Source: a bacterium (GTDB taxonomy: Bacteria; Hydrothermota; UBA3073; JACQXS01; JAQTXJ01). From it: 64,000 nucleotides of DNA. Under the pieces are notes generated by a model that searched no databases, was not told the DNA's origin, and saw only the letters and a list, made by a program, of their open reading frames with translations. This document shows positions 40,694 to 62,149 of the stretch, in pieces. The stretch spans positions 28,647 to 92,646 of the forward strand of contig JBAZNK010000004.1 in NCBI GenBank assembly GCA_041649255.1. Direction: 5' to 3'. Each line of letters opens with the position of its first letter. Position 1 is the stretch's first letter. The position numbers were made by a program, and so were the translations under genes.

Positions 40694-41752
40694 TCAGACT
40701 TTGCAGGAAATTCCGACTTTACTTATTACTGCTCTCAGTTTTTGAAATTCCTTTTTAGGATTGAAATGTGTTTTTATATAAATCTTACCATCTTCTACTA
40801 ATTCTCTCCTTAGGTTCTCATCATTCAAAACTCTTTTTATCTCTTTTACCCATTTATCCGGATTTAAGAAATCATCTATTAATATGGCGCCCGGTCCAGC
40901 AGCTTCAGGGATTCCACCTATTCTTCCTGCAACTACAGGTATTCCATTAAGCAAAGCTTCTACAATTATCATACCAAAAGTTTCTCCTATTACTGAAGGG
41001 ACAACTAATAATTTAGTAGTAGAATAAAAATATTTCGGAGGAGTATATCCCATATATCTTACATTTGGAAGTTTAAGTTTTATTCCATGTCCTACAGTTA
41101 AAAACTGTTCTTCCGGCATTAATCTGGCAATTTCACAAAAAGTTAAAATACCTTTACGGACTTCAGGCTGATACATAGTAATATACTTCTGAGGTACAAA
41201 TATCTCCTCGCATATGATTTCATCATAGTTGATAAACGGATAAATCACTTCCGAATCCATATTTGTAAACTCTTTTAACACCTGTCTTGTATATTCGGAA
41301 TTTGATATAATAGCATCTGCCTGTTGAAGCATCTCACGATTTCTTACAAGCGTAGTTTCATACAAATTGTAATAATTACAGTTTTTACAATTTCTGTCAC
41401 ATATTTCTGCATATAAGGGCACATGACAGAAATAATCCATACCATGAACAAAAAGAACTACCGGAATGTTTAACCTTTTGGCGATACTGACTGCAAAGGG
41501 AGCAAGATCAAACTGCGTAAATATGACATCCGGCAATAAAGTTTCTATACTTTTTGTAAGACTTAGCAATTCGCTAAAAGTATTTACTGTTACACCATTT
41601 TTTTCCACTTTTCTGCTTCTATTCTTTTCAATACAAAAAGCATAGGTATCAAATCCTTCCTCGCTTAAATGCTCAAGCAATGTTAAACTACTTTTTTCTG
41701 CACCTCTTAAAGGAGGATACAAATCGTGTGCTATGAATAATATTTTTTTCAT
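40694..41752 (-). CDS. GT4 family glycosyltransferase (GT-B)
   Basis: 352 aa; GETFGMIIVEALLNGIPVVAGRIGGIPE nucleotide-sugar binding motif. Confidence 0.75.
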   Translation of the reverse strand: MKKILFIAHDLYPPLRGAEKSSLTLLEHLSEEGFDTYAFCIEKNRSRKVEKNGVTVNTFSELLSLTKSIETLLPDVIFTQFDLAPFAVSIAKRLNIPVVLFVHGMDYFCHVPLYAEICDRNCKNCNYYNLYETTLVRNREMLQQADAIISNSEYTRQVLKEFTNMDSEVIYPFINYDEIICEEIFVPQKYITMYQPEVRKGILTFCEIARLMPEEQFLTVGHGIKLKLPNVRYMGYTPPKYFYSTTKLLVVPSVIGETFGMIIVEALLNGIPVVAGRIGGIPEAAGPGAILIDDFLNPDKWVKEIKRVLNDENLRRELVEDGKIYIKTHFNPKKEFQKLRAVISKVGISCKV

Positions 41753-41938
41753 TTATTCCTAATGCCTTTTTTAAATCAGCAAGTTCCGTGTCATTTATTA
41801 AAATATTCTGAACTCTCTTATATCATAAACATTTAAAGCTTTATTTAAAATACAAAAATATTTTCAATGTGGAAAATATTTCCTATCTAATAGGCAAAGA
41901 ACTAACTATTTTTTAATCACAAGAATGGATTATTAAAA

Positions 41939-42208
41939 ATGCTTGACTTTTTAAATATTAAGATTAATTGTTTTAACAGAATGGCGATTATCAAGAGAGA
42001 TAAGATTATAATTGAAGGTGAAGAAAATATAGGACTATCTCCTTCTCAACAGTCTATTCCTGTAGATACCCCGAATAATACAGAGTTAAAGGAGCCCGGG
42101 ATAAGTATAAACAAAGCAAATGGCATAGTTAACAGTATAGACATATTATGTACTTGTGGGCGTAAGATTCATATAGATTGTGAATACGAGGAAAAACCAA
42201 AAGCATAA
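41939..42208 (+). CDS. Small hypothetical protein with C-terminal Cys/His cluster, divergent from the modification island
   Basis: 89 aa ORF; ...ILCTCGRKIHIDCEYEE; no family assignment possible by eye. Confidence 0.3.
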   Translation: MLDFLNIKINCFNRMAIIKRDKIIIEGEENIGLSPSQQSIPVDTPNNTELKEPGISINKANGIVNSIDILCTCGRKIHIDCEYEEKPKA

Positions 42209-42263
42209 TTAGAAAATAGAAAAATAGGACATCCCGCTTTGACGGGTATCTGATAAATCCTTT

Positions 42264-43520
42264 ATGAATAATAATTATAAAGTTCTTGTTTATGATTCCT
42301 CTTACGAAGTATGCAACACGCTAAAGAATATTCTAAAAGATTTTAATTTCGAAATAGTAGAGTGTACAAATGTAAAAGATTTTTTTAAGTTTCTTGAAAG
42401 TATATTTTTTAATATCGCCTTTTTTGACACAGAAAACAAAGATAAAATCGAGATAGATATTTTTCAGAAATTTAAGATGGCTATGAATCCTGATATAAAT
42501 ATTATTTTAACATCTACAGTTCCCAAAGTTGAAATTGCAATTCGCGGCATTAAGTTCGGAATTTTAGATTATTTAACAAAACCTCTTAATAAGAAAGAAG
42601 TGTTGGAAAGCGTAAATAAAGTAGTGAACAAAGAACAGCCTTTTGAGAGAACCGGGTTGGGTTTATTAATAGGAGTTTCTCCAAAAATGCAACAACTTTA
42701 TTCTGAAATCTTAAATGTCGCTCCAACAAACTCCACAGTATGCATTCAAGGAGAAAACGGGACCGGCAAAGAATTGATAGCCCAAACCATTCATAATCTT
42801 TCCCTTCGTAAAGACGCGAACTTTATACCTGTAAATTGCAGTGCCATTCCTGAAAGCCTGCTCGAGACAGAATTATTTGGTCACGTAAAAGGCGCATATT
42901 CCGGAGCATCTCGCGATAATCCTGGCATTTTCAGGGCAGCCGAAAAAGGAACCATATTTCTTGATGAAATAGCAGAAATACCACACAGCATTCAGATAAA
43001 ACTCCTAAGGGTTCTTGAAGAAAAAGAAGTCAGATCTATTGGAAGCGCCCAGAATTATAAAATTGATTGTCGCATTATTACAGCTACAAACAAAGATCTT
43101 GAAAGAGCCGTTTTACAAGGAAAAATAAGAGAAGATTTTTTCCATAGACTGTTTGTCGTTTCTATAATAGTCCCTCCGCTTAGAGAAAGAAGAGAAGACA
43201 TTCCCCTTCTAATTGAACACTTCTTAATTTTAACCAAGGGACAAAATAAAAAACAGATTTCGGACGAAGTTCTTGAAGCTTTATGCTCTTATGATTGGCC
43301 CGGAAACGTCAGAGAATTAGAAAACGTGATAGAAAGCGCTTGCGTTACAAGCAGCAGTAATAGTTTAATCAAACTAACCGATATTCCCTTAAAAATAAGA
43401 GGAAGCAAAGGATTCATGCCAAATCGAAAATCTGTTTTATGGGATGACACACAAAAAAGCCTCATTCAAAGGACACTTGCCCAAACAGGCACAACAAACT
43501 CAAAACTGCAAAACTACTAG
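42264..43520 (+). CDS. Sigma-54-dependent response regulator (REC + AAA+ sigma-54 activator; NtrC/FlgR/FlrC-like); the C-terminal Fis-type HTH is in another frame (43490-43606)
   Basis: REC residues (D10, D55, T/S ~82, K ~104); Walker A GENGTGKEL; GAFTGA-type motif (GHVKGAYSGA); ESELFGH-like; the ORF stops just before the HTH NKLKTAKLLGIDRKTLYRKLKRYKI, which is readable in the frame offset by 2. Confidence 0.8.
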   Translation: MNNNYKVLVYDSSYEVCNTLKNILKDFNFEIVECTNVKDFFKFLESIFFNIAFFDTENKDKIEIDIFQKFKMAMNPDINIILTSTVPKVEIAIRGIKFGILDYLTKPLNKKEVLESVNKVVNKEQPFERTGLGLLIGVSPKMQQLYSEILNVAPTNSTVCIQGENGTGKELIAQTIHNLSLRKDANFIPVNCSAIPESLLETELFGHVKGAYSGASRDNPGIFRAAEKGTIFLDEIAEIPHSIQIKLLRVLEEKEVRSIGSAQNYKIDCRIITATNKDLERAVLQGKIREDFFHRLFVVSIIVPPLRERREDIPLLIEHFLILTKGQNKKQISDEVLEALCSYDWPGNVRELENVIESACVTSSSNSLIKLTDIPLKIRGSKGFMPNRKSVLWDDTQKSLIQRTLAQTGTTNSKLQNY

Positions 43521-43792
43521 GCATAGATCGCAAAACATTATACAGAAAACTCAAAAGATATAAAATAGTATCTCCATCACCCCAGACACAAGACACAACA
43601 CAATAAACCAGCACAAAAACAAAACAACCCAATCAAAATAAACTACACATTAAACACACTCAAAATACCCCAACACAAACAAAATCAACCACAATAGTGT
43701 AGCATAAAACTACACCCCAAAACCCCTAACCAACAACACAAAACAACACAGCGTCAATTCGCTACACCACACTGTCGCTCAATGCCTCAGTG

Positions 43793-44005
43793 TGGCAAAT
43801 TGACATATAGGAACAAAATGCCACATTGTAACATAAGGCAAAAAGCCACACCTCGGGATTATTTATCATCACAGTAAAATAACTCAGGGGTATATTGCTA
43901 CACTAGACTGTGGCTAAATAGAACATTGGGGCAAATTGACATATGAGAACAAAAGCCACACCGCAAAGTAAGGCAAAAAGCCACACCTCGAGACTGTTTA
44001 TTATC
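43793..44005. repeat. Two ~75-bp direct repeats (period ~138 bp) with recurring GCCACA/TGTGGC motifs inside a CA-only intergenic region; candidate enhancer (UAS) elements
   Basis: GGCAAATTGACATAT[A/G]GGAACAAAA..GCCACA...TAAGGCAAAAAGCCACACCTCG[G/A]GA.T.TTTAT at 43795-43870 and 43933-44008; long-range inverted repeat GGGGCAAATTGACA (43935) / TGTCAATTTGCCCC (44052). Confidence 0.6.
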
Positions 44006-44150
44006 CTATTAATACAACTTAGGGGTAAATCGCCACATATAGTTGTGTCAATTTGCCCCTGTGGTTATTTAGGACATACTGATTTGTATGATGATGTAAC
44101 TATTTGTTGGGTGTGGGTTTTAGGGTATTAGTGTGAATAATTTTGTATAT

Positions 44151-44165
44151 TGGCACATTTGTTGC
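44151..44165 (+). promoter_or_regulatory. Sigma-54 promoter (TGGCAC-N5-TTGC) upstream of the second activator gene
   Basis: TGGCACatttgTTGCTATTATAATAT; exact -24/-12 consensus; lies inside the track ORF start (44143), so the real start is ATG 44182. Confidence 0.55.
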
Positions 44166-44181
44166 TATTATAATATCTACT

Positions 44182-45231
44182 ATGGCAAAATTAACGGAAT
44201 TATTTTCTGAATTTAACGTTGCTGCAGAACGATTAGAAGGGGCTTACAAGGTTTTACAGGAGAAGGTTGAGCGTGCAAACCTATCCTACGGTTTTGGACC
44301 TCTTGTTGGAAGAACTGAAGGGATGAAGGAAATATACGAGATAATTCGTGCAGTTGCAAAGAGTAGAGCTTCGGTTTTGGTATATGGGGAGTCCGGGACC
44401 GGAAAAGAACTTGTATCAAGAGCAATACACTACGAGAGTAATTGCAAAGATAAACCTTTTATTTCCATAAATTGTGCGGCTATTTCCGAGGGGTTGTTAG
44501 AAAGCGAGCTTTTTGGTCATGAGAAAGGAGCTTTTACCGGAGCATTAGAAAAAAGAAAAGGGAAATTTGAACTTGCCAATGGAGGGACATTACTTCTTGA
44601 TGAAATTTCAGAGATGGGACTTATGCTCCAGGCGAAATTACTTCGTGTATTACAGGAATTTAGGTTTTTTAGAGTAGGCGGTTCCGAAGAAATAAAAGTA
44701 GATGTGAGGATAATTGCCACAACAAACCTTAATCCAAAAGAAGCTATTGAAAAACAAAAACTCAGAGAAGACCTTTTTTACAGGTTAAACGTAGTGAGCG
44801 TTAATATTCCACCATTGAGAGAAAGAAAAGAGGATATTCCTGTTCTTGCGGCTTATTTTTTAAGGAAATATTCCACTTTTTACAATAAACAGGTAAATTC
44901 CATCTCAACAGATGCATTAAAAATTCTTTTAAATTATAACTGGCCTGGAAATGTAAGAGAACTTGAAAATGTAATAGAGAGGGCAGTGATTCTTAATTCT
45001 TCTCCCTCGGTTCTCACTTCACATCTCAATCTTTCCAATAACTCAAATGATGTGCAATTAAACGGACTTATTGGATTATCTTTAGATGAAATAGAAAAGA
45101 AAGTTATTATTGAAACATTAAAAAAGAATAATGGGAACCGGACAAATACTGCTAAAATGTTAAAAGTAAGTATCCGGACAATAAGAGAAAAAATCAGGCA
45201 ATATAAAAAAGATGGGGAAATAATTGACTAA
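44182..45231 (+). CDS. Sigma-54-dependent transcriptional activator lacking any receiver/sensor domain (PspF-like: ~40-aa N-terminal helix + AAA+ + Fis HTH)
   Basis: GESGTGKELVSRAIH Walker A; GAFTGA (EKGAFTGAL); ESELFGH; intact C-terminal HTH (NRTNTAKMLKVSIRTIREKIRQY). Confidence 0.8.
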   Translation: MAKLTELFSEFNVAAERLEGAYKVLQEKVERANLSYGFGPLVGRTEGMKEIYEIIRAVAKSRASVLVYGESGTGKELVSRAIHYESNCKDKPFISINCAAISEGLLESELFGHEKGAFTGALEKRKGKFELANGGTLLLDEISEMGLMLQAKLLRVLQEFRFFRVGGSEEIKVDVRIIATTNLNPKEAIEKQKLREDLFYRLNVVSVNIPPLRERKEDIPVLAAYFLRKYSTFYNKQVNSISTDALKILLNYNWPGNVRELENVIERAVILNSSPSVLTSHLNLSNNSNDVQLNGLIGLSLDEIEKKVIIETLKKNNGNRTNTAKMLKVSIRTIREKIRQYKKDGEIID

Positions 45232-45315
45232 TAGGTGGAGTTTTTTGCCTATTGTAAAAAAAAGTAGTTTTATGAATTTATTATTTTATATACCTATTAT
45301 AGGTAGTGTTAATTT

Positions 45316-45330
45316 TGGCACGAAATTTGC
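45316..45330 (+). promoter_or_regulatory. Sigma-54 promoter (TGGCAC-N5-TTGC) of the flgB operon
   Basis: TGGCACgaaatTTGCTATTATAAATAT, 19 nt upstream of the flgB ATG; same downstream TATTATAA(A)TAT box as the 44151 promoter. Confidence 0.6.
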
Positions 45331-45348
45331 TATTATAAATATATTACA

Positions 45349-45759
45349 ATGAATAGTATTTTTAACGATATGGGTTTTGGCGCTACAAAAAAAGGGTTGG
45401 ATGTTAGCGCTTTGAGAAACAAGGTAATTGCCCAGAATATTTCAAATGTCTCAACGCCGGGATATTCTTCGTCAAAAGTAAAGTTTGAAGAGCTTCTTGA
45501 CGAAAAACTCGGGTTCAAATTATCCGGGACACGCACAAATCAAAGTCATCTACCCGTTGGCAGGGCAAATAACGAAATTAACAACGTAAATCCCTTAGTT
45601 GAAACATCAACTGATCCGATTCCGGCTGGGAAAGTCAACAACATAGAGATAGACAAAGAAATAGTTTCGCTTGCAAAAAATTCTTTAGATTGGGATACGT
45701 ATGTTAATTTGATTTCTTTCAAATATAGGCTTTTAACGCTAAGTATAAGAAGACAATAA
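45349..45759 (+). CDS. flgB: Flagellar basal-body rod protein FlgB
   Basis: 136 aa; N-terminal rod motif (LDVSALRNKVIAQNISNVSTPGY). Confidence 0.85.
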   Translation: MNSIFNDMGFGATKKGLDVSALRNKVIAQNISNVSTPGYSSSKVKFEELLDEKLGFKLSGTRTNQSHLPVGRANNEINNVNPLVETSTDPIPAGKVNNIEIDKEIVSLAKNSLDWDTYVNLISFKYRLLTLSIRRQ

Positions 45760-45783
45760 CAAAAATAAAACGGAGGTTATTAT

Positions 45784-46287
45784 ATGGGATGGTTTCCGGG
45801 AATTGACATAAGCGCGTCCGGGCTTTATGCGCAGCGTGTCAAACTAAATCAAGTAGCAAACAATATTGCAAATATAAATACGACCCGTAGTTTTTCGGGT
45901 GGACCTTATCGCAGACACGAGGTTTTATTGAAATCGGAAGATAATTTTTCGCAGCATCTTAGTGGACTGGAAGCTACACAAACGCCTCTTTCTTTGACAC
46001 ATCCTCGTCATATGCCATCGCTTGACGCTATGGGATCAGAATCCACACGGCAAAGACAAGGCGTAGCAGTAGATGAAGTAACTGAAGATACCGTAACTCC
46101 CTTTAAGACGGTATATAATCCTTCTCATCCGGATGCAGATAAGGATGGTTACGTAAAATTACCGAATGTAGACATTACTAAAGAACTTACGGATATGGTA
46201 ATAGCCAAAAGGGCTTACGAAGCAAATGTTGCATCAATTAATGCGAGTAAATCAATGGCAAGAACAGCACTTGACATAGGGAGATAA
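45784..46287 (+). CDS. flgC: Flagellar basal-body rod protein FlgC
   Basis: 167 aa; SASGLYAQRVKLNQVANNIANINTTRS N-terminus and conserved C-terminus (IAKRAYEANVASINASKSMARTALDI). Confidence 0.85.
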   Translation: MGWFPGIDISASGLYAQRVKLNQVANNIANINTTRSFSGGPYRRHEVLLKSEDNFSQHLSGLEATQTPLSLTHPRHMPSLDAMGSESTRQRQGVAVDEVTEDTVTPFKTVYNPSHPDADKDGYVKLPNVDITKELTDMVIAKRAYEANVASINASKSMARTALDIGR

Positions 46288-46394
46288 AAAGAAATGCAAA
46301 TTTTAGATTCTAGACTTTGCCTGCCTGCCGGTAGGCAGGGATTTGGGATAAGTACGATCTCGGCATCCACCTTAGGTGGAGATAGGAGGGTTAA

Positions 46395-46681
46395 TGGATA
46401 AAATTAGTAGAATTCAATTCGAAGCTCTTGCAAAATTAGAAGCGGCAAAATCAGACAAATCCGTTGATTTTAAATCCGTTTTAGAGAATTTTGTTAAAGA
46501 GGTTAATGACTTACAAAAGGAAGCAGACAATTCCATAGAGAAATTTACTTCAGGAAAAGAGGTAGACATTCATAAGGTAATGATAGCGACTCAAGAGGCA
46601 CAAATAAGCTTCCAACTTATGCTTGAACTTCGTAATAGATTGCAGACGGCTTACGAAGAAGTAATGCGCACGCAGATATAA
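46395..46681 (+). CDS. fliE: Flagellar hook-basal body protein FliE
   Basis: 95 aa from the ATG preceded by AGGAGGG (the track ORF starts upstream at 46376); C-terminus NRLQTAYEEVMRTQI typical of FliE. Confidence 0.75.
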
Positions 46682-46747
46682 TATTTAAAGTATACTAATA
46701 TGAACAATATAATATAATGAGGGAGATATTTTATTTAAAATAATCCT

Positions 46748-48226
46748 ATGAAATTCTGGAGCAAGCTTGGAATATTACAGAAAATTCTTTTTATTGGGAT
46801 AATCATAACAGCGATAGCGTCTTTTATGATTGTTCCAACTATGAAGAGCAAAAATGAAAAATTTGTCACTCTTTATTCTGAACTCAGTTTAAAAGAAGCA
46901 GGCGAGATAACAAAAAACCTTAAAGAGCTTAGCATTCCTTACAAAATAACGGATGGTGGCACAAAAATTCTTGTTCCTGAACTTCAAGTTTATGAGTCCA
47001 GACTAAATTTAGCATCTAAAGGAATTCCCAAGGGTGGAACGGTCGGCTATGAAATATTTGACAAAAACAATCTTGGGACAACGGCATTTGTAGAAGAAAT
47101 AAATTATAAACGTGCACTTGAGGGAGAACTTGTGCGAACTATTCAGAGCATAGAAGAAGTCAGCAGTGTAAGGGTTCACCTTGTTACACCAAAGGAACGA
47201 TTATTTAAAGAAGACCAAAAATCACCGAGTGCATCAGTAGTATTAAGATTAAAAAGTCCTCTTGCCGAGTCACAAATAAAGGGCATTGCTCATCTTATTG
47301 CCTCATCCGTAGAAGGTTTAGAGGCACAAAATGTAACTATACTTGATTATTCCGGAGAACTTTTACACGGTGGGGTTGGCGGGGAAGCGGACAACATTGC
47401 CATTTTATCAGGCAATCAATTAGAAACAAAACGCGATGTAGAGCGTTATCTTGCGCAAAAAGCTCAAGCCTTACTTGAAAAAGCAGTAGGTTATAGCAAT
47501 GTAATCGTAAAAGTAAATGCAGACATTAATTTTACCAATATAGTCGAGACTAACGAAAAATATGACCCGGAAGGACAGGTAGTAAGAAGTGAGGAAAAAC
47601 GTTCCGGCGGACAAAGTGGTGAAAAAAGTTCTGTAACTAATTATGAGATAACAAAAAGTGTTCAGCAGGTAATCAATCGTGCCGGCACCATAAACAGGCT
47701 TTCTGTTTCGGCTTTAATAAATGGGACATACGATCTTATAGAAGAAAACGGGAAGAAATCTTATAAATATACTCCTCGTAGTGAAACCGATTTAATGAAG
47801 TTTCAATCGCTTGTAAAAAATGCAGTAGGATATACATTAACAAGGGGAGATTCTATAGAAGTCACTTCCGTTCCTTTCGGAGCGCCTGTTATTGACACAC
47901 AGAAACCGGAAAAAGAAGGGATACCTATTTTAGTTATAATACAACCACTTATAACACCTATAGTGACCGGAATAGTAATTATTATAGTTCTTATGTTTTT
48001 AATACGGTTATTAGGTTCTATGCCTTCCGCTGCCGGTCGCCCTGTCAATCGTTCTGCCGCTCCCGGACAAACTGCTGCAAACGCTCAGACATCTCCAGAT
48101 AGAGCAACAGAAAGTACAAAGGGAGAAGAAAAAACAGATTTCAATAAACTAAAAGAAGACTTTTCAAAGACCGTAGCTGAGAACCCAAATATGCTTGCGG
48201 GAGTAATAAAAAGATTACTGAAATAA
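46748..48226 (+). CDS. fliF: Flagellar M-ring protein FliF
   Basis: 492 aa; N-terminal TM, conserved periplasmic region (ELQVYESRLNLASKGIP), second TM and cytoplasmic tail. Confidence 0.85.
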   Translation: MKFWSKLGILQKILFIGIIITAIASFMIVPTMKSKNEKFVTLYSELSLKEAGEITKNLKELSIPYKITDGGTKILVPELQVYESRLNLASKGIPKGGTVGYEIFDKNNLGTTAFVEEINYKRALEGELVRTIQSIEEVSSVRVHLVTPKERLFKEDQKSPSASVVLRLKSPLAESQIKGIAHLIASSVEGLEAQNVTILDYSGELLHGGVGGEADNIAILSGNQLETKRDVERYLAQKAQALLEKAVGYSNVIVKVNADINFTNIVETNEKYDPEGQVVRSEEKRSGGQSGEKSSVTNYEITKSVQQVINRAGTINRLSVSALINGTYDLIEENGKKSYKYTPRSETDLMKFQSLVKNAVGYTLTRGDSIEVTSVPFGAPVIDTQKPEKEGIPILVIIQPLITPIVTGIVIIIVLMFLIRLLGSMPSAAGRPVNRSAAPGQTAANAQTSPDRATESTKGEEKTDFNKLKEDFSKTVAENPNMLAGVIKRLLK

Positions 48227-48281
48227 AAACAAGATAACGAGTTCTAATGGCTATCGCCAAAGAACTTGTAATAAATAATAC

Positions 48282-49265
48282 ATGGCAGAAGAACTATCAG
48301 GACCACAAAAAGCAGCAGTTATTATCGCATGGCTTGATGATACTCTTGCAGTTGAAGTTTTAAAACAATTATCTCCTGAAGAAATAAAATCAGTAGCAAA
48401 AGAAATAGCCCAACTTGGAAATATTCCACCAAGGGCAGTAAAAAATGTATTATCTGAATTTAATGAATTAATGACAGAACAACCTATTGTAGGCAACCAG
48501 ACAAGGGCAACTGCACTTCTAAATCAGGTAATGGGAAATTTGGAATATTCAGAAATAGTAGGGGATTATGGCGGAGAAAGCGACAAAAAGGCATTGGAAA
48601 TTCTCCAGAATGCAGATCCTTTTGCTCTTCTTGATGCAATAAAAAATGACCAGCCACAAACTATAGCAATAACGTTAAGGACCATTCCCCCGGCAAAAGC
48701 ATCAATGATTTTAAGAGACTTGCCTCCCGAAACAATGGAGGAAGTCATAAAAAAAATGACCAAACTTGATAACGTTTCTTCGGAAACAGTTAATATAATA
48801 GCACAAAGTTTAAGGATGAAACTACGATTAGCGACATCCAAAGAAGAGATTCGTCGTTCAAGCGGAATTGGTATTGCATCTACAATTGTATCTTATATTG
48901 GTGGAGCAGATGCTCAAAATATATTAAAGTCTATAGGGGAAAAAGATTCGGATACGGCAAACAGGATGAAAGATTTAATATTCACATTTGATGATATAGC
49001 AGATATGGAAGACAAAGCGCTCCAGCAGATTATTCGTGAGATAGACAGGCATACTCTTGTTGTAGCATTAAAAGGTGCCAATGAGAAGATAAAAAATAAG
49101 ATTTTATCCAACGTATCAGAAAGGGCAAAAGAAGAGTTGATGGAAGAATTTGAAACGCTTGGTGCTTTGAGATTAGCGGAAATAGAAGAATCTCAAAGAA
49201 AAGTTGTAGAAATAATACGAAGGCTTGATGAAGAAGGCAAGGTTACGTTACAAAAGAAACAATAA
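48282..49265 (+). CDS. fliG: Flagellar motor switch protein FliG
   Basis: 327 aa; FliG N-terminal, middle and C-terminal domains (LSGPQKAAVII...; MEDKALQQIIREID). Confidence 0.85.
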   Translation: MAEELSGPQKAAVIIAWLDDTLAVEVLKQLSPEEIKSVAKEIAQLGNIPPRAVKNVLSEFNELMTEQPIVGNQTRATALLNQVMGNLEYSEIVGDYGGESDKKALEILQNADPFALLDAIKNDQPQTIAITLRTIPPAKASMILRDLPPETMEEVIKKMTKLDNVSSETVNIIAQSLRMKLRLATSKEEIRRSSGIGIASTIVSYIGGADAQNILKSIGEKDSDTANRMKDLIFTFDDIADMEDKALQQIIREIDRHTLVVALKGANEKIKNKILSNVSERAKEELMEEFETLGALRLAEIEESQRKVVEIIRRLDEEGKVTLQKKQ

Positions 49266-49271
49266 TAATTT

Positions 49272-49847
49272 ATGGAATATACAATAAAGACGAGCATGCC
49301 ATTAAAAGATATATCTTTTCGGCAGGCTACGCAAAATACATGCGAACATCTAGATTTCTGGAATAAAGTTTACGGGGAAGGGTTTAAAGATGGTAGCCTA
49401 AAAGGCACAGAAAAAGGGCTAACAATGGCAAAGAACGAGTTGCAAAATACTAAAGAGAAGTTAGAATTTTTAGTTCATTCTTTTTTAGAGGAAAAAGAGA
49501 AACTTTTAAAATCATCGGAAACAACCATATTTCAATTAGTAAAAGAGATAGCCAAAAAAGTTATAGAGATTGAGATAAACGAAAACCCTAAAGTAATTGT
49601 TGATACTGTAGGCGAAGCAATAAAGCGGATAAGAGAAGAAGAAAGGGTTATAATTAAAGTTAATCCCGTAGATTTTGACATTATAAAATCAAAAGAAAGC
49701 GAATGGGTAGCTTCTCTTCCTTATGTTTCAAAGTTTCAAATAACAGCCGACGAAAATATATCCCGGGGAGGTTGTTTAATAGAAACCAGTGTTGGGAAAA
49801 TAGATGCCACTATTGAGTCCAAGTTTAAGAAATTAGAAGAGCTCTAA
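49272..49847 (+). CDS. fliH: Flagellar assembly protein FliH
   Basis: 191 aa; position between fliG and fliI; FliH/YscL-like C-terminal region. Confidence 0.7.
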   Translation: MEYTIKTSMPLKDISFRQATQNTCEHLDFWNKVYGEGFKDGSLKGTEKGLTMAKNELQNTKEKLEFLVHSFLEEKEKLLKSSETTIFQLVKEIAKKVIEIEINENPKVIVDTVGEAIKRIREEERVIIKVNPVDFDIIKSKESEWVASLPYVSKFQITADENISRGGCLIETSVGKIDATIESKFKKLEEL

Positions 49848-49857
49848 TAAACAAACT

Positions 49858-51177
49858 ATGACAGAACTTATATTGGATAAATATTTAACAAAAATAGAGA
49901 ATACGGACTTTATATCTCATAGCGGTAAAGTTACGGGTGTAACAGGACTTATAATTGAAGCACGTGGACTTCATGCAGCAATTGGGGAAGTTTGCAATCT
50001 AATAAATAATAACAATCCCCACGAAAGCATAAAAACTGAAGTAGTTGGTTTCAAGGGCGACAATACACTTCTTATGCCACTTGGTTCAATGGATGGTATT
50101 TCTCCCGACACTGAAGTTATTACAACAGGCAAGCCATTGGAAATACCTGTCAGCAATGCTCTTCTTGGAAGGGTATTAGACGGGCTTGGGAATCCAATAG
50201 ACGACAAGGGACCTCTTTTAAGTTCCGAAAACAGGTGTGTATATAATGTAGCGCCTCATCCTTTAAAACGTTCAAGAGTAAAAGAGGTTTTACCTACCGG
50301 GATAAAGGCAATAGATGGTTTTTTAACTTGCGGAAAAGGCCAAAGGATAGGAATATTTTCCGGAAGCGGCATAGGGAAGAGTACATTAATGGGTATGATT
50401 GCGAGGTATTGCAAAGCCGATATAAACGTAATTGGACTGACAGGGGAAAGGGGAAGGGAAGTTAAAGACTTCATCGAAAAAGATTTAAAAGAAGGTATTA
50501 GCAAATCGGTCGTAGTGGTTTCCACTTCCGAACAACCTGCTCTTATAAGGTTAAAAGGAGCATTTACGGCTACTACGATAGCAGAATATTTCAGAGATAA
50601 GGGTTATAACGTATTATTATTATTGGATTCCATAACTCGTATAGCAATAGCACAAAGAGAGGTAGGGTTATCCATTGGGGAACCGCCAACAACAAAAGGA
50701 TTTACTCCTTCGGTTTTTGCGCTTTTACCAAAACTTCTTGAGCGTTCGGGAATGTCTGATACCGGTAGTATTACAGGTTTTTACACCGTTCTTGTCGAAC
50801 AGGGAGATATGGATGAGCCAATATCGGATGCCGTAAGAGCAATTCTTGATGGACACATCGTTCTTTCAAGAAAACTTGCCCATGCAAATCATTATCCTGC
50901 GATAGACATTCTTTCGAGTATTTCAAGACTAATGATAGACATTGTCCCCAAAGAACACAATAATGCAGCAAGGTTAACGAGAGACATTCTTGCATTACAT
51001 AGAGAAACAGAAGACCTTATAAATATTGGGGCATATGTCAGACATTCCAACCCCAAAATAGACCACGCAATAGATATGATTGATAAAATTAACGATTTTG
51101 CAGAACAAGAAATCGATTTAAAAGCAGAGTATAAGCAAACCATTCAACAATTAATTGAGCTTAGCAAGTCCGCCTGA
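49858..51177 (+). CDS. fliI: Flagellum-specific ATPase FliI
   Basis: 439 aa; Walker A GSGIGKST, Walker B LLLLDSITR, T3SS ATPase signature. Confidence 0.9.
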   Translation: MTELILDKYLTKIENTDFISHSGKVTGVTGLIIEARGLHAAIGEVCNLINNNNPHESIKTEVVGFKGDNTLLMPLGSMDGISPDTEVITTGKPLEIPVSNALLGRVLDGLGNPIDDKGPLLSSENRCVYNVAPHPLKRSRVKEVLPTGIKAIDGFLTCGKGQRIGIFSGSGIGKSTLMGMIARYCKADINVIGLTGERGREVKDFIEKDLKEGISKSVVVVSTSEQPALIRLKGAFTATTIAEYFRDKGYNVLLLLDSITRIAIAQREVGLSIGEPPTTKGFTPSVFALLPKLLERSGMSDTGSITGFYTVLVEQGDMDEPISDAVRAILDGHIVLSRKLAHANHYPAIDILSSISRLMIDIVPKEHNNAARLTRDILALHRETEDLINIGAYVRHSNPKIDHAIDMIDKINDFAEQEIDLKAEYKQTIQQLIELSKSA

Positions 51178-51194
51178 GGCGGAGTTGATAAAAA

Positions 51195-51641
51195 ATGAAA
51201 AGATTTGAATTTAGGCTTGATAAAGTTATGAATTATAAAAAAAATATAGAAGAGATGAAGAAACAAGAACTTGCACAAGCTATGAGATTGCTTCTTGAAG
51301 CTCAAATAAAAGCTTCCCAGTTGAAAAAATATAAATCCTGCCAGCTTAAAGAGATGACTGAGATCCAGGAAGATGATATATATACAAGATTATTGTATGA
51401 TAAGTATATATTAGCTTTAAATTTTCACATAAAAATGGCTGAAAAATTAATAGCAGAAAGAATCCTTTTAAGCGAACAAAAAAGACTTGAAGTTGTTGAG
51501 GCATCTAAAGCCCGACGTATCTTTGAAAAATTAAAGGAGAAAAAAATAGAAGAATTTAATTACGAGCGAAATAAATGGGAACAAGGCGTTGAAGATGAAT
51601 GTGCTAAATACGTTCATAATAATCAGAGTACGATAAGATAA
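51195..51641 (+). CDS. fliJ: Flagellar export protein FliJ
   Basis: 148 aa coiled-coil protein directly after fliI. Confidence 0.65.
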   Translation: MKRFEFRLDKVMNYKKNIEEMKKQELAQAMRLLLEAQIKASQLKKYKSCQLKEMTEIQEDDIYTRLLYDKYILALNFHIKMAEKLIAERILLSEQKRLEVVEASKARRIFEKLKEKKIEEFNYERNKWEQGVEDECAKYVHNNQSTIR

Positions 51642-51673
51642 TCCGCCAAGGCGGGACTAAAAAAAATATAATT

Positions 51674-52465
51674 ATGGCTGACGAAGAACAAAAACAAGAG
51701 TTAACTAACTCTGAATCCACTGCTCCGGATAACAAGGCAGGGAAAAAAACAAAGCCTAAAAAAGGTGGGTTTTCGATTAAATTCCCTAAAAAAGCTTCGG
51801 GCGGTAAAAAAAATAAATCCAGAGACGAAAGAGATGATAGAGACAAGGAAAAGAAAACAGATGGGAAAGATGCTCCAAAAGAAGGGACCGGGAAAAAGCC
51901 CCCCAAAAAAATGTTATTATTAATAATTATAGGTGCCGCTGTTATTATTATTGCAGCAGCAGGATTTTTTGTCTTAAAACCGAAGCTCGCATCAAAAAAA
52001 AACATAGCAGAACAAGCAGATTCTTCAAAAGTTGCTTTGGCAGATACATTCAAAACCGATTCTTTACTTACAGATACATCTTCTTACAGTCTTTCTAATG
52101 CCGACACCAACAAATTAAATGCCGACTCTATTCTTGCTCAAGATGAAACAACTCAAAATTCTAATTCTTCACAACTTGATGTCGCTATAAAACAAGCGGA
52201 AGACAAGACAATACTCGAAAAACAATTATTAGAAACAAAACGTGTAAATGACAGCATCGTCAAAGAATCCGAACGTAAACTTACCAAGACTCTGGAATCT
52301 ATGGAACCTGAGGGCATGAGCGCCATTATGGATAGTCTTGATGATAATACCGTTATTGATTTATTATCAAAAATGAAACCTAAGAATGTTTCCGAGATAT
52401 TAAGCGTTATGAATCCGGGCAGGGCGGCTAAACTTATAAGAGACATTAACTCTAGAAACAAATGA
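51674..52465 (+). CDS. YlxF/MotE-family flagellar protein (Lys-rich N-terminus, one TM, C-terminal MgtE_N-like domain)
   Basis: 263 aa; C-terminus SAIMDSLDDNTVIDLLSKMKPKNVSEILSVMNPGRAAKLI resembles the MgtE N domain; same position as ylxF in the B. subtilis fla/che operon. Confidence 0.55.
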   Translation: MADEEQKQELTNSESTAPDNKAGKKTKPKKGGFSIKFPKKASGGKKNKSRDERDDRDKEKKTDGKDAPKEGTGKKPPKKMLLLIIIGAAVIIIAAAGFFVLKPKLASKKNIAEQADSSKVALADTFKTDSLLTDTSSYSLSNADTNKLNADSILAQDETTQNSNSSQLDVAIKQAEDKTILEKQLLETKRVNDSIVKESERKLTKTLESMEPEGMSAIMDSLDDNTVIDLLSKMKPKNVSEILSVMNPGRAAKLIRDINSRNK

Positions 52466-54957
52466 ATAATAATACTAATATAATTTCTAAAAACTGTCTA
52501 CCTGTTTCAAAAGGGAAGACAAAAACTGCTTTACTTAAAAATACCCAATTTAACTCTCTTAATAATCTAAAAGGGGAAAAATATCAGGACAATAGAGCAA
52601 GTTTTAATGATGAACTATTTAAGGTCTTAACTGTTCCGGGTATGTCTTCCCTTAAAGAATCTTCGATGAAAATATCTACACCCAACAATACTACTTCTAA
52701 CCGGTTGAATTCAAATTCTTCTTCCACCTCATTAAACAATACGGCAACCCGTCTTACATCCTCAACTGCCAAGGAGACAGAAACTACGAGCACCGCCAAG
52801 AATATTTCTACCAAGTTAAATACAAATTCAAATTCTTCTTCCACCTCATTAAACAATACAACAACCCGTCTTACATCCTCAACTGCCAAGGAGACAGGAA
52901 CTACGAGCACCGCCAAGAATATTTCTACCAAGTTAAATACAAATTCAAATTCTTTTTCCACCTCATTAAACAATACAGCAACCCGTCTTACGTCCTCAAC
53001 TGTCAAGGAGACAGGAACTACGAGCACCGCCAAGAAAGAGACTACGACATTGGGGATTGATAAATCGCCAAGCATATCTATTCCGGAAGCCTTGAAGACA
53101 AATAAACCGGATTCCAGTTCTCTCCCTACCTACGTCAGGCAGGCAGGGAATAATAACCCTATCGCTACACCTATTAATCTTTCCGAAACAAACAAACAAA
53201 CAACTTCAGTATTTTTTAATAAAAATATAAAATTGACTGTCACAGCTGAACATCCTATATCATATGATAAAAACACCGCGAATCAAATTCAGTCACAGTC
53301 TAATTCTGACTTAGCAAGCAAAGTATCTGATAAGACAAACAAACAAACTGAACCAACAAGTAATAACACAATCCCGGGGCATCAAATTTCCGCTTCAAAA
53401 ATAATTACAACAAGTACTTCTATACCTACCGGATTAAAAGCAGGTTCAAATTCTTCCCCATCTTCATATTTAAATGACGCCTCTACCGCAAAAGCACCGG
53501 TTACTTCTAAAACACTTTTTCTTAAGGAATCTACGACAGTACATCAGAAAACAGACAAAAACATAACAACTAAACTTTTATCCTTAAATGACAAAGAAAC
53601 AGGGACTACGCCCACTACAAAGGTAGGGGCTACGACATTAGGAATTGATAAATCGCCGAGCATATCCATTTCGGAAGTCCTGAAGACAAATAAATCTGAT
53701 GCTATCAATACCCGCCAAGACAGGATAAGGAATTTATCATCTACGATAAATTCTTCCCGCGTTAAGTTTGATAATTTATCAAGTTCCACGCCTATTAATA
53801 TTTCCGACTTAAACAAGCAAATATCTACAGTATTTTCCAATAAAAATACTGCAAGTCAAATTCAGCCAGAATCTCGTTCTGACTTAGCAAATAAGGTATC
53901 TGACAAACCAAAAGAGAAAACAAAACCAATAAACAGTAAAGCAATTTCGGGTTCTGTTACAAGCGAACTTTCCGTTCAACCGCGTTCAGAGGAAATACCT
54001 GTCATTCGCCTCAAGCAAACCAACAGTACGGTATCTTCTTCGTCCATTTTTCCACCAAAGGCGGATGAGTCCATTCTTCCAACAATACTCCAAACAAAAG
54101 TCGAACAAGTAGCTCAAGGGAGGCTCAATATAAGACACTCTGCTCCGATAGAGAGAACTGATACCGGAACGGATAAAAAAATTAATACTGACAATAACTT
54201 ATCTAAAAATATATTTATTAAAGAGCAGGTTATTCCATTATCTACGCCAAGACAAGATGTTTCATATTCAAAAACCTATTCAAATATGTTCAATACGAAT
54301 GACAGGAATACGGATAACCTTAGCGTTCAAAAGCAATCACAGAAAACCGTTTCCAATGTATCTTTTAATACTGCCGGGTCAGAACCATTATCACCTAACA
54401 ACGACGTAATTAATATTCTCCAGTCAAAGGAAAACGCATCTAAGACTGACATTACGCCTAAAAACACTTCTTTTACAGGGTCTTCTACCACTCAAACAAT
54501 CTTTCAATCTAGTTTTCCCTTCATTTCAAATCATATTAAAACCTCTTTAACGACAACTAAAACAGGAGATTTGATAACAACTACTTTCAATCTCAAACCG
54601 GAGCATTTAGGCAAATTAAAAATAAGTTTAATTTCGCATAATAATTTTACTCAAGACAAAACTTCTATATCAGAGCTCAAACTTGTCGTTGATAACATTG
54701 CGACCAAACAATTATTAGAATCTAATATTTCACAACTTAAATCTGCTCTTCTTTCAGAAGGGGTTATGATTCAAGAATTTAATATTTCTCTTAATCAAGA
54801 TGCGTCTGATAATGCACATCAATCTTTGCCAGGGTACAATCATTCAAAATTATCTACACTATCTTCCATCAAAGACGAGTCTAATTTTGATAGGAATGTA
54901 ATTCCATCGGGTATTAACTTAGCTTATGAAAAAGGAAAAATTGATTTATTTATTTAA
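52462..54957 (+). CDS. fliK: Flagellar hook-length control protein FliK (unusually long, 831 aa, repeat-rich N-terminal ruler region)
   Basis: C-terminal Flg_hook domain (TTFNLKPEHLGKLKISLI...LKLVVDNIATKQLLESNISQLKSALLSEGVMIQEFNIS); Ser/Thr/Asn-rich N-terminal region with tandem repeats. Confidence 0.7.
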   Translation: MNNNTNIISKNCLPVSKGKTKTALLKNTQFNSLNNLKGEKYQDNRASFNDELFKVLTVPGMSSLKESSMKISTPNNTTSNRLNSNSSSTSLNNTATRLTSSTAKETETTSTAKNISTKLNTNSNSSSTSLNNTTTRLTSSTAKETGTTSTAKNISTKLNTNSNSFSTSLNNTATRLTSSTVKETGTTSTAKKETTTLGIDKSPSISIPEALKTNKPDSSSLPTYVRQAGNNNPIATPINLSETNKQTTSVFFNKNIKLTVTAEHPISYDKNTANQIQSQSNSDLASKVSDKTNKQTEPTSNNTIPGHQISASKIITTSTSIPTGLKAGSNSSPSSYLNDASTAKAPVTSKTLFLKESTTVHQKTDKNITTKLLSLNDKETGTTPTTKVGATTLGIDKSPSISISEVLKTNKSDAINTRQDRIRNLSSTINSSRVKFDNLSSSTPINISDLNKQISTVFSNKNTASQIQPESRSDLANKVSDKPKEKTKPINSKAISGSVTSELSVQPRSEEIPVIRLKQTNSTVSSSSIFPPKADESILPTILQTKVEQVAQGRLNIRHSAPIERTDTGTDKKINTDNNLSKNIFIKEQVIPLSTPRQDVSYSKTYSNMFNTNDRNTDNLSVQKQSQKTVSNVSFNTAGSEPLSPNNDVINILQSKENASKTDITPKNTSFTGSSTTQTIFQSSFPFISNHIKTSLTTTKTGDLITTTFNLKPEHLGKLKISLISHNNFTQDKTSISELKLVVDNIATKQLLESNISQLKSALLSEGVMIQEFNISLNQDASDNAHQSLPGYNHSKLSTLSSIKDESNFDRNVIPSGINLAYEKGKIDLFI
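52711..53040 (+). repeat. 2.8 tandem copies of a 117-bp (39-codon) in-frame repeat inside fliK
   Basis: The marker TCAAATTCTT recurs at 52711, 52828 and 52945; unit encodes NSNSSSTSLNNTATRLTSSTAKETETTSTAKNISTKLNT; a diverged larger-scale copy lies at ~53590-53900. Confidence 0.8.
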
Positions 54958-55009
54958 GTCCGGGTTCCGGGCTCCCGAACATTTTCGGGGAAATGAAGGA
55001 GGTGATTAA

Positions 55010-55669
55010 ATGATAACGAATATACAGAGCCTTAATTACACAACTACTAGCGCTACAGCATCTACTGCTTCTACTGACATTACAGGTAAAGATGAATTTT
55101 TAAAACTTCTTACAACTCAACTCAAATACCAGGATCCTACTGCTCCTATGGATAACAAAGATTTTCTTGCACAGCTTGCACAGTTTTCGAGTTTAGAGCA
55201 ACTTCTTAACGTCAACGGAAATCTTCAGGCAAATTTTCTTGCTCTCCAATCTCTAAACAATTCTTCCGCGACTGATTTTATCGGAAAAACCGTTAAGGCC
55301 ACAGGTAATTCTGTTTCTCTTGTTGAAAACGCATCGGTTCCTATTAGTTATTCTCTTGCCGGGGCTGCTGAAGCAACAGTAAGTATTTACGATTCCAACG
55401 GAAATTTAGTCCGCACTTTAGATTCTGAATGGCAAAGTTCGGGTGACAATCAAATGTTATGGGATGGAAAAGATTCTTCGGGCAATGCTTTGGCGCCGGG
55501 GAAATATACTTTTTCGGTTTCAGCAAAGGATACTGATGATAATTCCGTAACAGCTACAGGATACCTCAGCGGTAAAATAACGGGAGTAAAGTTCGTCAAC
55601 GGTAATCCTGTACTTATGATGGGTGACACAGAAATATCTTTTAGTGATATTTACGAGATAAATGGTTAA
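55010..55669 (+). CDS. flgD: Flagellar hook capping (scaffolding) protein FlgD
   Basis: 219 aa; DEFLKLLTTQLKYQDPTAPMDNKDFLAQLAQFSSLEQL signature; AGGAGG RBS. Confidence 0.85.
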   Translation: MITNIQSLNYTTTSATASTASTDITGKDEFLKLLTTQLKYQDPTAPMDNKDFLAQLAQFSSLEQLLNVNGNLQANFLALQSLNNSSATDFIGKTVKATGNSVSLVENASVPISYSLAGAAEATVSIYDSNGNLVRTLDSEWQSSGDNQMLWDGKDSSGNALAPGKYTFSVSAKDTDDNSVTATGYLSGKITGVKFVNGNPVLMMGDTEISFSDIYEING

Positions 55670-55684
55670 TAAGGAGGTGATGAA

Positions 55685-56098
55685 ATGGTAGATAAATTAA
55701 CGGTAACTAATTCTGTTAATACAAAGAGACCAATCACACCCGTATCAGGTGGAATATCTGATAGTAAATCAGGGCAGATACAAGGGGCAGGTTCAACCAG
55801 TTTTGCCGAACTGTTAAGAGAAAAAGGGATTCAACTTTCAAATCATGCCAACACGAGAATACAGTCCAGAAATATTCCAACCAGCACAGAGAATGTTTCG
55901 AGACTGCAGTCTGCAATAGACAAAGCCAGTGCCAAGGGTGCAAAAGAATGCCTTGTTCTTATGGACAACACTGCATATTTGGTCGCTCTAAAACATTTGC
56001 CTGACGGGAAAGCAAGTCAGACAGTAGTTACTGTTATAAGTAAAGATGAGCTTCAACAGCGCATTTTTACTTCTATAGATTCGGTTGTAATTGCTTGA
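55685..56098 (+). CDS. Flagellar operon protein (TIGR02530-like ORF conserved between flgD and flgE)
   Basis: 137 aa; the call is positional and by size, in the known flgD-X-flgE arrangement of Firmicutes and spirochaetes. Confidence 0.45.
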   Translation: MVDKLTVTNSVNTKRPITPVSGGISDSKSGQIQGAGSTSFAELLREKGIQLSNHANTRIQSRNIPTSTENVSRLQSAIDKASAKGAKECLVLMDNTAYLVALKHLPDGKASQTVVTVISKDELQQRIFTSIDSVVIA

Positions 56099-56217
56099 GG
56101 CCGGACCTTGCCATAGTGGCAAGGAAGCCTCTTTATGTCGCTGAATGACTGATGCGGCATACTTTCCGCCCGAAAGGCGGAAAGTCTCGCCAAGGCGGGA
56201 CAAGGAGGAGGGGGAAA

Positions 56218-58263: not shown

Positions 58264-58353
58264 GAATAAGTAGAGAGCAGTAAGTTAAGGTAGAGAGTTA
58301 ATTATTCCGCTTCAGGCGGATAAGAGTTAAGTCCGTCTGAAGCGGATAAGAAT

Positions 58354-59139: not shown

Positions 59140-59159
59140 AGAAGGCAGGCACGTAAAAA

Positions 59160-60122: not shown

Positions 60123-60126
60123 AAAA

Positions 60127-60516: not shown

Positions 60517-60541
60517 TAAAAACGAGAAGTGAGAGAAAAAG

Positions 60542-61108: not shown

Positions 61109-61110
61109 AA

Positions 61111-61875: not shown

Positions 61876-61877
61876 CT

Positions 61878-62147
61878 ATGGATCAAGGAATGGCAATTTC
61901 TATTTTTAAGGATACTTTAATAACAACGCTTGTTTTATCTTTACCAATGTTGCTTGCAGGATTGGTAATAGGCGTTCTTATATCTATTTTTCAGGCTGTT
62001 ACTGCAATAAAAGAAATGACATTATCTTTTGTACCTAAGATTCTGGCAGTGGGCGCCGTAATGTATTTTACTTTACCGTGGATGCTAACAAAGATGGTAG
62101 AATTTACAGCAAGAATGTTTGCCCAGATGGAACATCTAGTTAAATAA
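61878..62147 (+). CDS. fliQ: Flagellar export apparatus protein FliQ
   Basis: 89 aa, two TM helices; typical FliQ sequence. Confidence 0.85.
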   Translation: MDQGMAISIFKDTLITTLVLSLPMLLAGLVIGVLISIFQAVTAIKEMTLSFVPKILAVGAVMYFTLPWMLTKMVEFTARMFAQMEHLVK

Positions 62148-62149
62148 CT

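Follow-up and report, generated by a model that had tools for sequence, protein, structure and literature searches.

The 64-kb window examined here (a stretch of 64,000 nucleotides (nt) from contig JBAZNK010000004.1 of an uncultured groundwater bacterium) holds a flagellar supercluster, in which fliD, fliS and the flagellin gene lie on the minus strand, and two activator genes followed by flgB through fliR lie on the plus strand. The question raised by this locus concerns two short plus-strand elements, termed P_ebp2 and P_flgB, which read TGGCAC-N5-TTGC and lie almost directly against the start codons of the second activator gene and of flgB, respectively. Are these elements sigma-54 promoters, and how much leader would be left on the messages that they produce? 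Sequence comparison suggests that both are likely sigma-54 (-24/-12) promoters. Given a functional promoter, it is likely that the leader would not exceed 8 nt, and the two propositions taken jointly are, on balance, probable. The promoter type is ordinary for flagella, whereas the near-absence of a leader is unusual. The elements concerned and the genes behind them are the following:

44151 to 44165, plus strand: P_ebp2, -24/-12 core TGGCACatttgTTGC, an exact motif match upstream of the gene for an activator that lacks a receiver domain (enhancer-binding protein 2, EBP2)
44166 to 44181, plus strand: AT-rich stretch TATTATAATATCTACT from the -12 C to the ATG of EBP2, with a predicted transcription start at about 44176 to 44179
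44182 to 45231, plus strand: EBP2, a sigma-54 activator of 349 amino acids (aa) comprising an AAA+ domain with GAFTGA, a lid and a Fis-type helix-turn-helix (HTH), assigned by Pfam
45291 to 45305: palindrome TACCTATTATAGGTA at about -45, 10 nt ahead of the P_flgB -24 box
45316 to 45330, plus strand: P_flgB, -24/-12 core TGGCACgaaatTTGC, an exact motif match upstream of the flgB operon
45331 to 45348, plus strand: AT-rich stretch TATTATAAATATATTACA from the -12 C to the flgB ATG, with a predicted transcription start at about 45341 to 45344
45349 to 62908, plus strand: flgB-flgC-fliE-fliF-fliG-fliH-fliI-fliJ-...-flgD-flgE-motA-fliM-fliN-fliO-fliP-(fliQ)-fliR, assigned by NCBIfam and Pfam

The two sites, at 44151 and 45316, had been singled out in a preliminary description of this DNA and are indeed the only exact matches to TGGCAC-N5-TTGC in the window, where 0.09 matches are expected by chance; none of 100 dinucleotide-preserving shuffles of the 64-kb sequence reached two. 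P_flgB additionally fits the extended sigma-54 consensus YTGGCACGrNNNTTGCW, as quoted in PMC5243855 from the compilation of Barrios et al. (1999), at all 13 specified positions. A sigma-54 reading suits these sites and a sigma-70 reading does not, because the spacing is rigid and corresponds to one turn, and blocks set 5 nt apart are unusable as -35 and -10 elements. Beyond the cores, both sites run on into TTGCTATTATAA, a 12-mer with only two exact copies in the window, which is followed by TAT directly at P_ebp2 and after one extra A at P_flgB. This identity, described earlier as an identical extended downstream box, is real, but it drifts across related promoters and does not behave as a separate element: past the -12 region only TTGCT(A)(T) is constrained, while the remainder is AT-rich and varies (TATTAATAAT at flgB of locus L001, TATTATATATAA in L010, TATTAACAAATA at EBP2 of L011 and L013, and TGTGACATTAAC at flgB of L013). 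The shared box is therefore read here as the probable flank of the -12 element together with the AT-rich region to be melted. The TTATAGGT half of the palindrome in front of P_flgB is kept upstream of flgB in L001, L002, L010, L011 and L013, and the palindrome may be a site for an activator or an architectural protein.

The closest genomes as judged by FlgB are two unclassified groundwater metagenome-assembled genomes (MAGs; 96% and 88% identical), and the next relatives belong to Ignavibacteria and Melioribacteraceae, at 30–38%. Only five sequences among 5.8 billion proteins exceed 60% FlgB identity, and a metagenome scan with a FlgB alignment returned distant relatives of 25–37% identity and no intermediate ones. 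A MAG of candidate division WOR-3 and contigs related to it carry orthologs of the receiver-less EBP2 with 62–68% identity and the same gene order. The lineage is a group of unclassified groundwater MAGs, with candidate division WOR-3 and Ignavibacteria as its closest named kin; the earlier label of a Firmicute-like operon thus describes the gene order and not the lineage.

Within this framework, the promoter cores stand out by their conservation. At P_ebp2, the core with 5 upstream and 14 downstream bases is 100% identical in the window, L001 and L002, and the 85 nt further upstream have diverged, heavily so in L001. An anchored table of 16 related promoters shows T-G-n-C-A-C and T-T-G-C-T each to be invariant in 15–16 of 16 and the 5-nt spacer to be present in all 16. 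That the motif is found far beyond chance expectation and is kept in relatives while neighboring DNA diverged supports the sigma-54 reading. Further support comes from independent lineages which place canonical motifs before flgB: TGGCAC-N5-TTGCA in the Melioribacteraceae locus L007, TGGCACGCCGCTTGC at 1922–1936 in the distant, GC-rich L018, where it lies between rpoN (about 300–1790) and flgB, and a canonical motif in L059. The Ignavibacteria-like loci L003, L005, L006 and L008 share TGGCATCTAATTTGA upstream of flgB (about 9905–9925), a -24/-12-like motif in which GA takes the place of the GC of the -12 element; a gene for a small CxCG protein precedes this motif.

Upstream of the two sites lie the following genes and sequences:

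41939 to 42208: small open reading frame (ORF) upstream of EBP1, homologous to the small CxCG protein gene of the Ignavibacteria-like genomes
42264 to 43520, plus strand: EBP1, with a receiver domain and a sigma-54 AAA+ domain (GAYSGA loop; PF00158, with values for EBP1 and EBP2 ranging from 1e-64 to 1e-69)
43740 to 44060: candidate enhancer (upstream activating sequence) array of P_ebp2, built of tandem repeat units of about 135 bp with GTGGC/GCCAC half-sites

The order on the plus strand is thus small ORF, EBP1, a 660-bp spacer, EBP2 and flgB through fliR. Two sigma-54 activator genes directly upstream, with GAFTGA present in EBP2, support the assignment of the promoters to sigma-54, and so does the conserved enhancer-like array, which lies within the usual distance of roughly 80–400 bp upstream of P_ebp2. 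EBP2 matches PF00158 (2e-69) and HTH_8 (4e-13), has neither a receiver nor a sensor domain, and finds NifA, ZraR, NtrC1, FlrA, FlrC, FleQ and PspF among structures in the PDB (1e-58 to 1e-83). It looks like a former response regulator that lost its receiver, since its nearest full-length relatives are NtrC-type response regulators (55–59% identity, vs. 41% to EBP1). A KSB1 match (P0049 in L014) lies outside a flagellar context, looks like a split response regulator and was not used. EBP1 is frameshifted inside its C-terminal HTH (43470–43620), where frame 0 ends in ...LAQTGTTNSKLQNY* and frame 2 continues with NKLKTAKLLGIDRKTLYRKLKRYK and matches the intact 447-aa ortholog of L001; the frameshift is either an artifact of assembly or means that EBP1 has truly lost the ability to bind DNA. 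The array in the spacer holds three exact GGCAAATTGACA 12-mers at 43794, 43930 and 44046 (the last inverted), or about -383, -247 and -125. Counted as GTGGC/GCCAC half-sites, it comprises seven in 631 nt vs. 0.41 expected (P = 3e-7), situated 120–390 bp upstream of P_ebp2. L001, L002 and the WOR-3 locus L011 are enriched to a similar degree, and L011 contains the full palindrome GTGGCAAATCGCCAC twice. P_flgB has no such GTGGC/GCCAC array and only the TTATAGGT palindrome at about -45. The array is flanked by a CA-rich stretch (43600–43740), which is partly complementary to a GT-rich stretch at 44104–44146.

How short the leaders would be depends on the start codons and on the assumption that sigma-54 transcription begins 11–14 nt after the -12 C. 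The ATG of EBP2 (44182) lies 16 nt and that of flgB (45349) 18 nt past this base, giving predicted leaders of 3–6 nt and 5–8 nt, respectively. The near-leaderless geometry of about 5–8 nt proposed previously was therefore calculated correctly, and both start codons could be verified. In EBP2, substitutions are mostly synonymous, a pattern that begins only after ATG 44182, and a TTG at 44143 was discarded as a start because a 1-nt indel in L001 (an insertion between box and ATG) puts it out of frame. In an alignment of seven FlgB orthologs, as little as 52% identical, all begin at the first Met and show the motif M-x-x-I-F-x-D-x-G-F; a start at the second Met (Met-8, 45370) would lengthen the leader to 26 nt, but L002 has Ile and L010 has Thr at this position. 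Between the -12 C and the ATG, EBP2 has 16 nt in the window, 17 in L001 and 16 in L002, and flgB has 18 in the window, 18 in L001, 17 in L002, 15 in L010 and 16 in L009. The 15–18-nt gap is thereby found in 8/8 promoters of the sublineage, down to 67% FlgB identity. Since it varies by 3 nt, the AUG would be situated a few nucleotides from the 5' end, and a position exactly at +1 is unlikely. Conversely, the orthologous promoters of the WOR-3-like loci L011 and L013 lie 132–212 nt from their start codons in the same gene order, and the gap measures 28 nt in L007, roughly 35–40 nt in other Ignavibacteria, 86 nt in L018 and 60 nt in L059. The near-leaderless arrangement thus appears to be a derived trait of the sublineage, with leaders lost at both promoters. 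The long leaders of L011 (5790–6000 and 7202–7339) and L013 (63–220 and 1394–1525) contain repeated CCGTGTTTCC-like motifs and potential stems, and may be regulatory leaders lost in the window's lineage. In L016, from a GC-rich soil bacterium, TGGTAC-N5-TTGC (315–346) precedes the flgB ATG by just 14 nt and may represent an independent very short sigma-54 leader; as a 9/10 match among about 50 loci, it has a non-negligible probability of arising by chance.

No recognizable Shine-Dalgarno (SD) sequence precedes EBP2 or flgB, in agreement with the preliminary description, which had set this against the strong sites of other genes in the window. While fliC, fliE (ATG 46394), flgD and flgE (true ATG 56218) do carry GGAGG-type sites, the contrast is weak: of 50 window genes that were examined, 26 lack a recognizable SD, among them fliF, fliG, fliH and fliI. 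Because about half of the genes here do without one, its absence at EBP2 and flgB is not special, and the distinctive trait is instead the short promoter-to-ATG distance. In the predicted flgB message, nucleotides 1–24 are unpaired according to folding prediction. A search of 41700–45800 against Rfam (E ≤ 1) found no structured RNA or riboswitch.

Taken together, these features suggest a mechanism in which sigma-54 RNA polymerase docks on TGGCAC-N5-TTGC as a closed complex and EBP1, EBP2 or both spend ATP through their AAA+ domains to open the AT-rich stretch past the -12 element. Transcription would start about 11–14 nt past the -12 C, and translation would proceed from the 5'-proximal AUG in a leaderless-like manner, independently of an SD since the leader is too short for a ribosome-binding site. 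A DNA-bound activator, either EBP1 upon a signal or EBP2 by positive feedback, would turn on ebp2; lacking a regulatory domain, EBP2 is probably active once made and would then drive the 17-kb flgB–fliR operon, perhaps along with two TGACAC sites described below. Such a cascade is likely because P_ebp2 alone has the GTGGC/GCCAC array and P_flgB has none. The flagellin gene would be served separately by a sigma-28-like promoter.

Several observations weigh against this reading, among them the third base of the -24 box. In the table of 16 promoters it is G in eight, A in seven and T in one. GG is kept in the window's two sites and in L001, L002, L010, L007 and L018; at flgB, the box reads TGGCAC in the window, L001 and L010, TGGCAT in L002 and TGACAC in L009, L011 and L013, and the orthologous promoters of the closest outgroups have TGACAC or TGTCAC. 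Canonical sigma-54 would not be expected to allow such freedom among G, A and T. In E. coli, it is R456 in the RpoN box that reads the second G of the -24 GG, and the wild-type protein retains only about 1.4% activity on a GA-type box, while R456H prefers GA, R456L prefers GT, and R456Y, M, W and F prefer GC (PMC12096077). Furthermore, a scan for the RpoN box across the window and all 59 loci revealed no rpoN in the window or in the fetched loci of the clade; it was detected only in the distant L018 (RpoN box ARRTVSKYRE), directly upstream of flgB. A weak stem (-9.2 kcal/mol, z = -1.5) includes the AUG of the predicted EBP2 message, the plus strand shows no intrinsic terminator from EBP2 to flgB and no clear one from EBP1 to EBP2, and TTGC-TATTAT doubles as an extended -10 element (TGnTAnnnT). 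Moreover, both the start sites and the dependence on sigma-54 are predictions.

The variable third base is nevertheless a reason for caution and not a refutation, since RpoN sites with non-canonical -24 boxes have been accepted in Leptospira, where band shifts support them, and suggested in Caulobacter (PMC5243855, PMC4287350). When the motif is generalized to TGnCAC-N5-TTGC, the window contains four matches vs. 0.38 expected, all intergenic and oriented toward the next gene; TGACAC-N5-TTGC alone accounts for two vs. 0.03 expected (TGACACGGAAnTTGCT). In related loci with the generalized motif, matches are confined to these promoter positions. The two additional sites in the window are:

41779 to 41793, minus strand: variant site TGACACggaacTTGCT / TGACACGGAAcTTGCT, 26 nt before ATG 41752, the first glycosyltransferase gene of a divergent operon
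22810 to 22824, minus strand: variant site TGACACggaatTTGCTATACTATAAT / TGACACGGAAtTTGCT, 40 nt before a 53-aa ORF (22769–22608)

The first of these is identical in L002. The 53-aa ORF behind the second has a GGAGG site, belongs to no assigned family and lies upstream of a TPR protein gene; TTATAGAG, similar to the P_flgB palindrome, is found at about 22835–22842 on the minus strand and precedes the TGACAC site (22824) by 9 nt. Two related metagenome contigs carry TGCCACCGCGCTTGC 95 nt upstream of flgB (L044 2547–2561 and L048 736–750), in which the second G is replaced by C. A tentative extension, which we regard as possible but doubtful, holds that the sigma-54 of the WOR-3-related clade reads TGnCAC instead of TGGCAC, and that the window's sublineage deleted leaders of 130–210 nt, leaving the promoters abutting the start codons.

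The overlap with an extended -10 element gives rise to two rival explanations. TGCTATTAT forms such an element (TGnTATTAT) at both window sites, with the TG supplied by the TTGC of the -12 region, so that the sigma-54 site might overlap a functional sigma-70 promoter (TGcTATTAT) that yields a basal, activator-independent transcript with a short leader, to which sigma-54 adds induction or with which it competes. Such an overlap would also account for how an activator gene that itself depends on a sigma-54 promoter is first switched on, and TGnTAnnnT occurs at both window promoters, in L002 and L010 and at the 22810–22824 site. Positions 44169–44174, within the AT-rich stretch of P_ebp2 and 7 nt before the ATG, read a perfect TATAAT, and TGnTA extended -10 promoters are associated with leaderless mRNAs in B. 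japonicum (PMC4842269). The element is, however, lost where the core stays, reading TATTAA at flgB of L001, TAATGC in L009, TGTGAC at flgB of L013, TATTAA at EBP2 of L011 and L013, and ATAGAT in L007, and is thus not conserved among the orthologs in the 16-promoter table. A usable -35 at 16–18 nt is also absent, and a standard sigma-70 scan with this spacer range called no promoter on the plus strand at either site. We consider such dual promoters unlikely, though a serious rival, and the element may still function in the window; both readings predict nearly the same start site, and the short leader would therefore follow regardless of which of them holds. That sigma-70 acts alone, through an extended -10 or through TTGRCA with a -10, with TGGCAC being coincidental or bound by an activator, is very unlikely. 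It would accommodate the second G that is not kept in relatives, as well as TTGACA-N17-GATAAT at flgB of L009 and TTGACA-N15-TATAAT at the 22810–22824 site. The L009 -10, though, ends 3 nt before the ATG, so that the expected sigma-70 start would fall inside or past the start codon, and flgB of L013 has no -10-like hexamer at all, yet its TTGACACAAAATTTGCT is identical to that of L011. The loss of the hexamer in several orthologs that keep the -24/-12 core speaks against sigma-70 alone, as do the invariant 5-nt spacing between TGnCAC and TTGC, which cannot be contacted as -35 and -10, and the sites in Ignavibacteria, L007 and L018, which fit sigma-54 only.

Two further explanations accept or replace sigma-54 at these sites. 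Since no terminator was found, longer read-through transcripts may coexist with the short ones, and most EBP2 and FlgB could even be made from transcripts started further upstream, at EBP1 or P_ebp2, the leaderless message being minor and the start codons serving as internal, SD-free starts like those of fliF, fliG and fliI. Initiation of this kind is evidently routine in this genome. Still, dominance of read-through is quite unlikely, given promoter cores under strong purifying selection, a 15–18-nt gap kept throughout the sublineage, and outgroups which keep the same promoters with long leaders, suggesting that these promoters are the primary drivers there. Lastly, the free third base at orthologous promoters could indicate that another lineage-specific factor, be it a sigma factor or a repressor or activator dimer, reads TGnCAC-N5-TTGCT and that the likeness to sigma-54 is partly accidental. 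This is highly improbable: all other consensus positions match sigma-54, including CACG(r) and TTGCW, the sigma-54 activators and the enhancer array lie next to the sites, and we know of no other promoter class with such geometry. A -7 motif of the Bacteroidetes type (TAnnTTTG) was also considered in the 16-promoter table, where its TA is missing at all sites.

Behind P_flgB, intergenic gaps are short, and a motif scan of the window found no further -24/-12 match in the interior of the flgB–fliR cluster; fliF, fliG, fliI and fliP–R are all located inside it without another promoter motif. The cluster of about 17 kb is thus apparently a single operon. Short GC-rich hairpins (e.g., CCTGCCtgccggtaGGCAGG, CTTTCCGCCcgaaaGGCGGAAAG and CGCCaaGGCG) recur in flagellar-operon spacers, at 46320–46339, 56108–56128, 56163–56185 and 56187–56200 and upstream of 51195, 51674, 58354, 10599 and 42264; these could be elements of RNA stability or processing. 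The flagellin gene has its own predicted promoter:

11648 to 11674, minus strand: TAAA-N16-GCGATAA, resembling a sigma-28 promoter, in front of the flagellin gene (ATG 11620); a strong AGGAGGTG comes after it

The flagellin and flgB operons are separated by 30 kb of minus-strand genes (11906–41752) for glycosyltransferases, methyltransferases, radical-SAM and TPR proteins. This block encodes proteins of 1375 and 1657 aa, includes a lone PD-(D/E)XK gene (27144–27527) and is presumably a flagellin or surface glycosylation island. Tandem paralogous small ORFs of 69 and 64 aa (...EINTSPTFY.V.PG.HSNGREIPVY...; 7681–7890 and 8035–8229, minus strand) are located between fliD and an isolated ribosomal-protein-L3-like gene, which adjoins a PtsN-like PTS IIA gene (6261–6776).

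Sigma-54 control of flagella is well known in Proteobacteria but undescribed for WOR-3- and Ignavibacteria-like lineages in the literature searched, and its presence here would be a modest extension. The unusual features would be the promoters abutting start codons and the clade-wide free base within the supposedly invariant GG. Sigma-54 closed complexes cover DNA down to about the start site. With the start codon inside or at the edge of this footprint, transcription initiation and ribosome loading would be coupled, if the arrangement is confirmed; such coupled initiation on a virtually leaderless sigma-54 message is a combination not found in the literature searched. The clade further offers a natural experiment on the -24 GG, as orthologous promoters differ only at the base read by R456, the residue whose changes have been used in synthetic biology to re-target sigma-54 to GA, GT or GC (PMC12096077). 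If true, the locus would provide natural examples of both relaxed -24 specificity and sigma-54-driven messages of the leaderless type.

Compared with known sigma-54 promoters, the sites in the window have exact GG...GC cores, the obligatory spacing, adjacent genes for bacterial enhancer-binding proteins and, in one case, an enhancer-like array. Unlike usual sigma-54 promoters, their -12 element lies 15–18 nt from the start codon without room for a ribosome-binding site, and orthologs in sister lineages replace the second G of GG by A or T. The predicted messages resemble leaderless or short-leader mRNAs in that their 5' end is expected about 2–8 nt from an AUG (not GUG or UUG), no SD is present, and the 5' end of flgB is unstructured. 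In contrast to strictly leaderless mRNAs, the gap of 15–18 nt probably does not place the AUG exactly at +1; known leaderless mRNAs, moreover, arise from promoters of the sigma-70 type, often with an extended -10 TGnTA (PMC4842269). No report of sigma-54-driven leaderless mRNAs was found in the literature searched, which is no proof that they do not exist. With its N-terminal helix of about 40 aa, AAA+ domain with GAFTGA, lid and Fis-type HTH, EBP2 is built like PspF, and is probably controlled by abundance and not by phosphorylation. Unlike PspF, it is closest to NtrC-type response regulators, and a PspA-like inhibitor is not evident.

The preliminary description had seen a Campylobacter/Helicobacter-like cascade in this locus, with sigma-54 for hook–basal-body genes and sigma-28 for flagellin. 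In those organisms, FlgSR and sigma-54 control class 2, rod, hook and minor flagellin genes are under sigma-54, the major flagellin is under sigma-28, and the -12 element is of the TTGCT type. In epsilon-proteobacteria, the genes for the export apparatus, MS-ring and switch belong to class 1, depend on sigma-70 and are scattered over the genome, and FlgR has no DNA-binding domain. The window shares probable sigma-54 promoters for rod and hook genes, a sigma-28-like flagellin promoter and the TTGCT-type -12. The label is imprecise, however, in that a single promoter heads flgB–fliR with the MS-ring, switch and export genes included, two tandem activators are present which both encode an HTH, and an array is found only at P_ebp2.

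In the flagellar systems of Vibrio and Pseudomonas, two sigma-54 activators act in succession (FlrA to FlrC; FleQ to FleR), followed by sigma-28 for flagellin. Here, too, there are two sigma-54 activators, one of which has a receiver domain, and the MS-ring, export and rod genes lie behind a putative sigma-54 promoter, with a sigma-28-like promoter at the flagellin gene. Differences are seen in the second activator, which has neither an N-terminal FleQ domain nor a receiver domain, in the tandem arrangement of the activator genes directly upstream of flgB, and in the apparently single promoter for flgB–fliR; moreover, no histidine kinase gene was seen near the activators. Nevertheless, because two activators are present and the MS-ring, switch and export genes lie behind a sigma-54 promoter, the proposed wiring would be closer in its logic to FlrA/FlrC or FleQ/FleR than to the Campylobacter/Helicobacter system.

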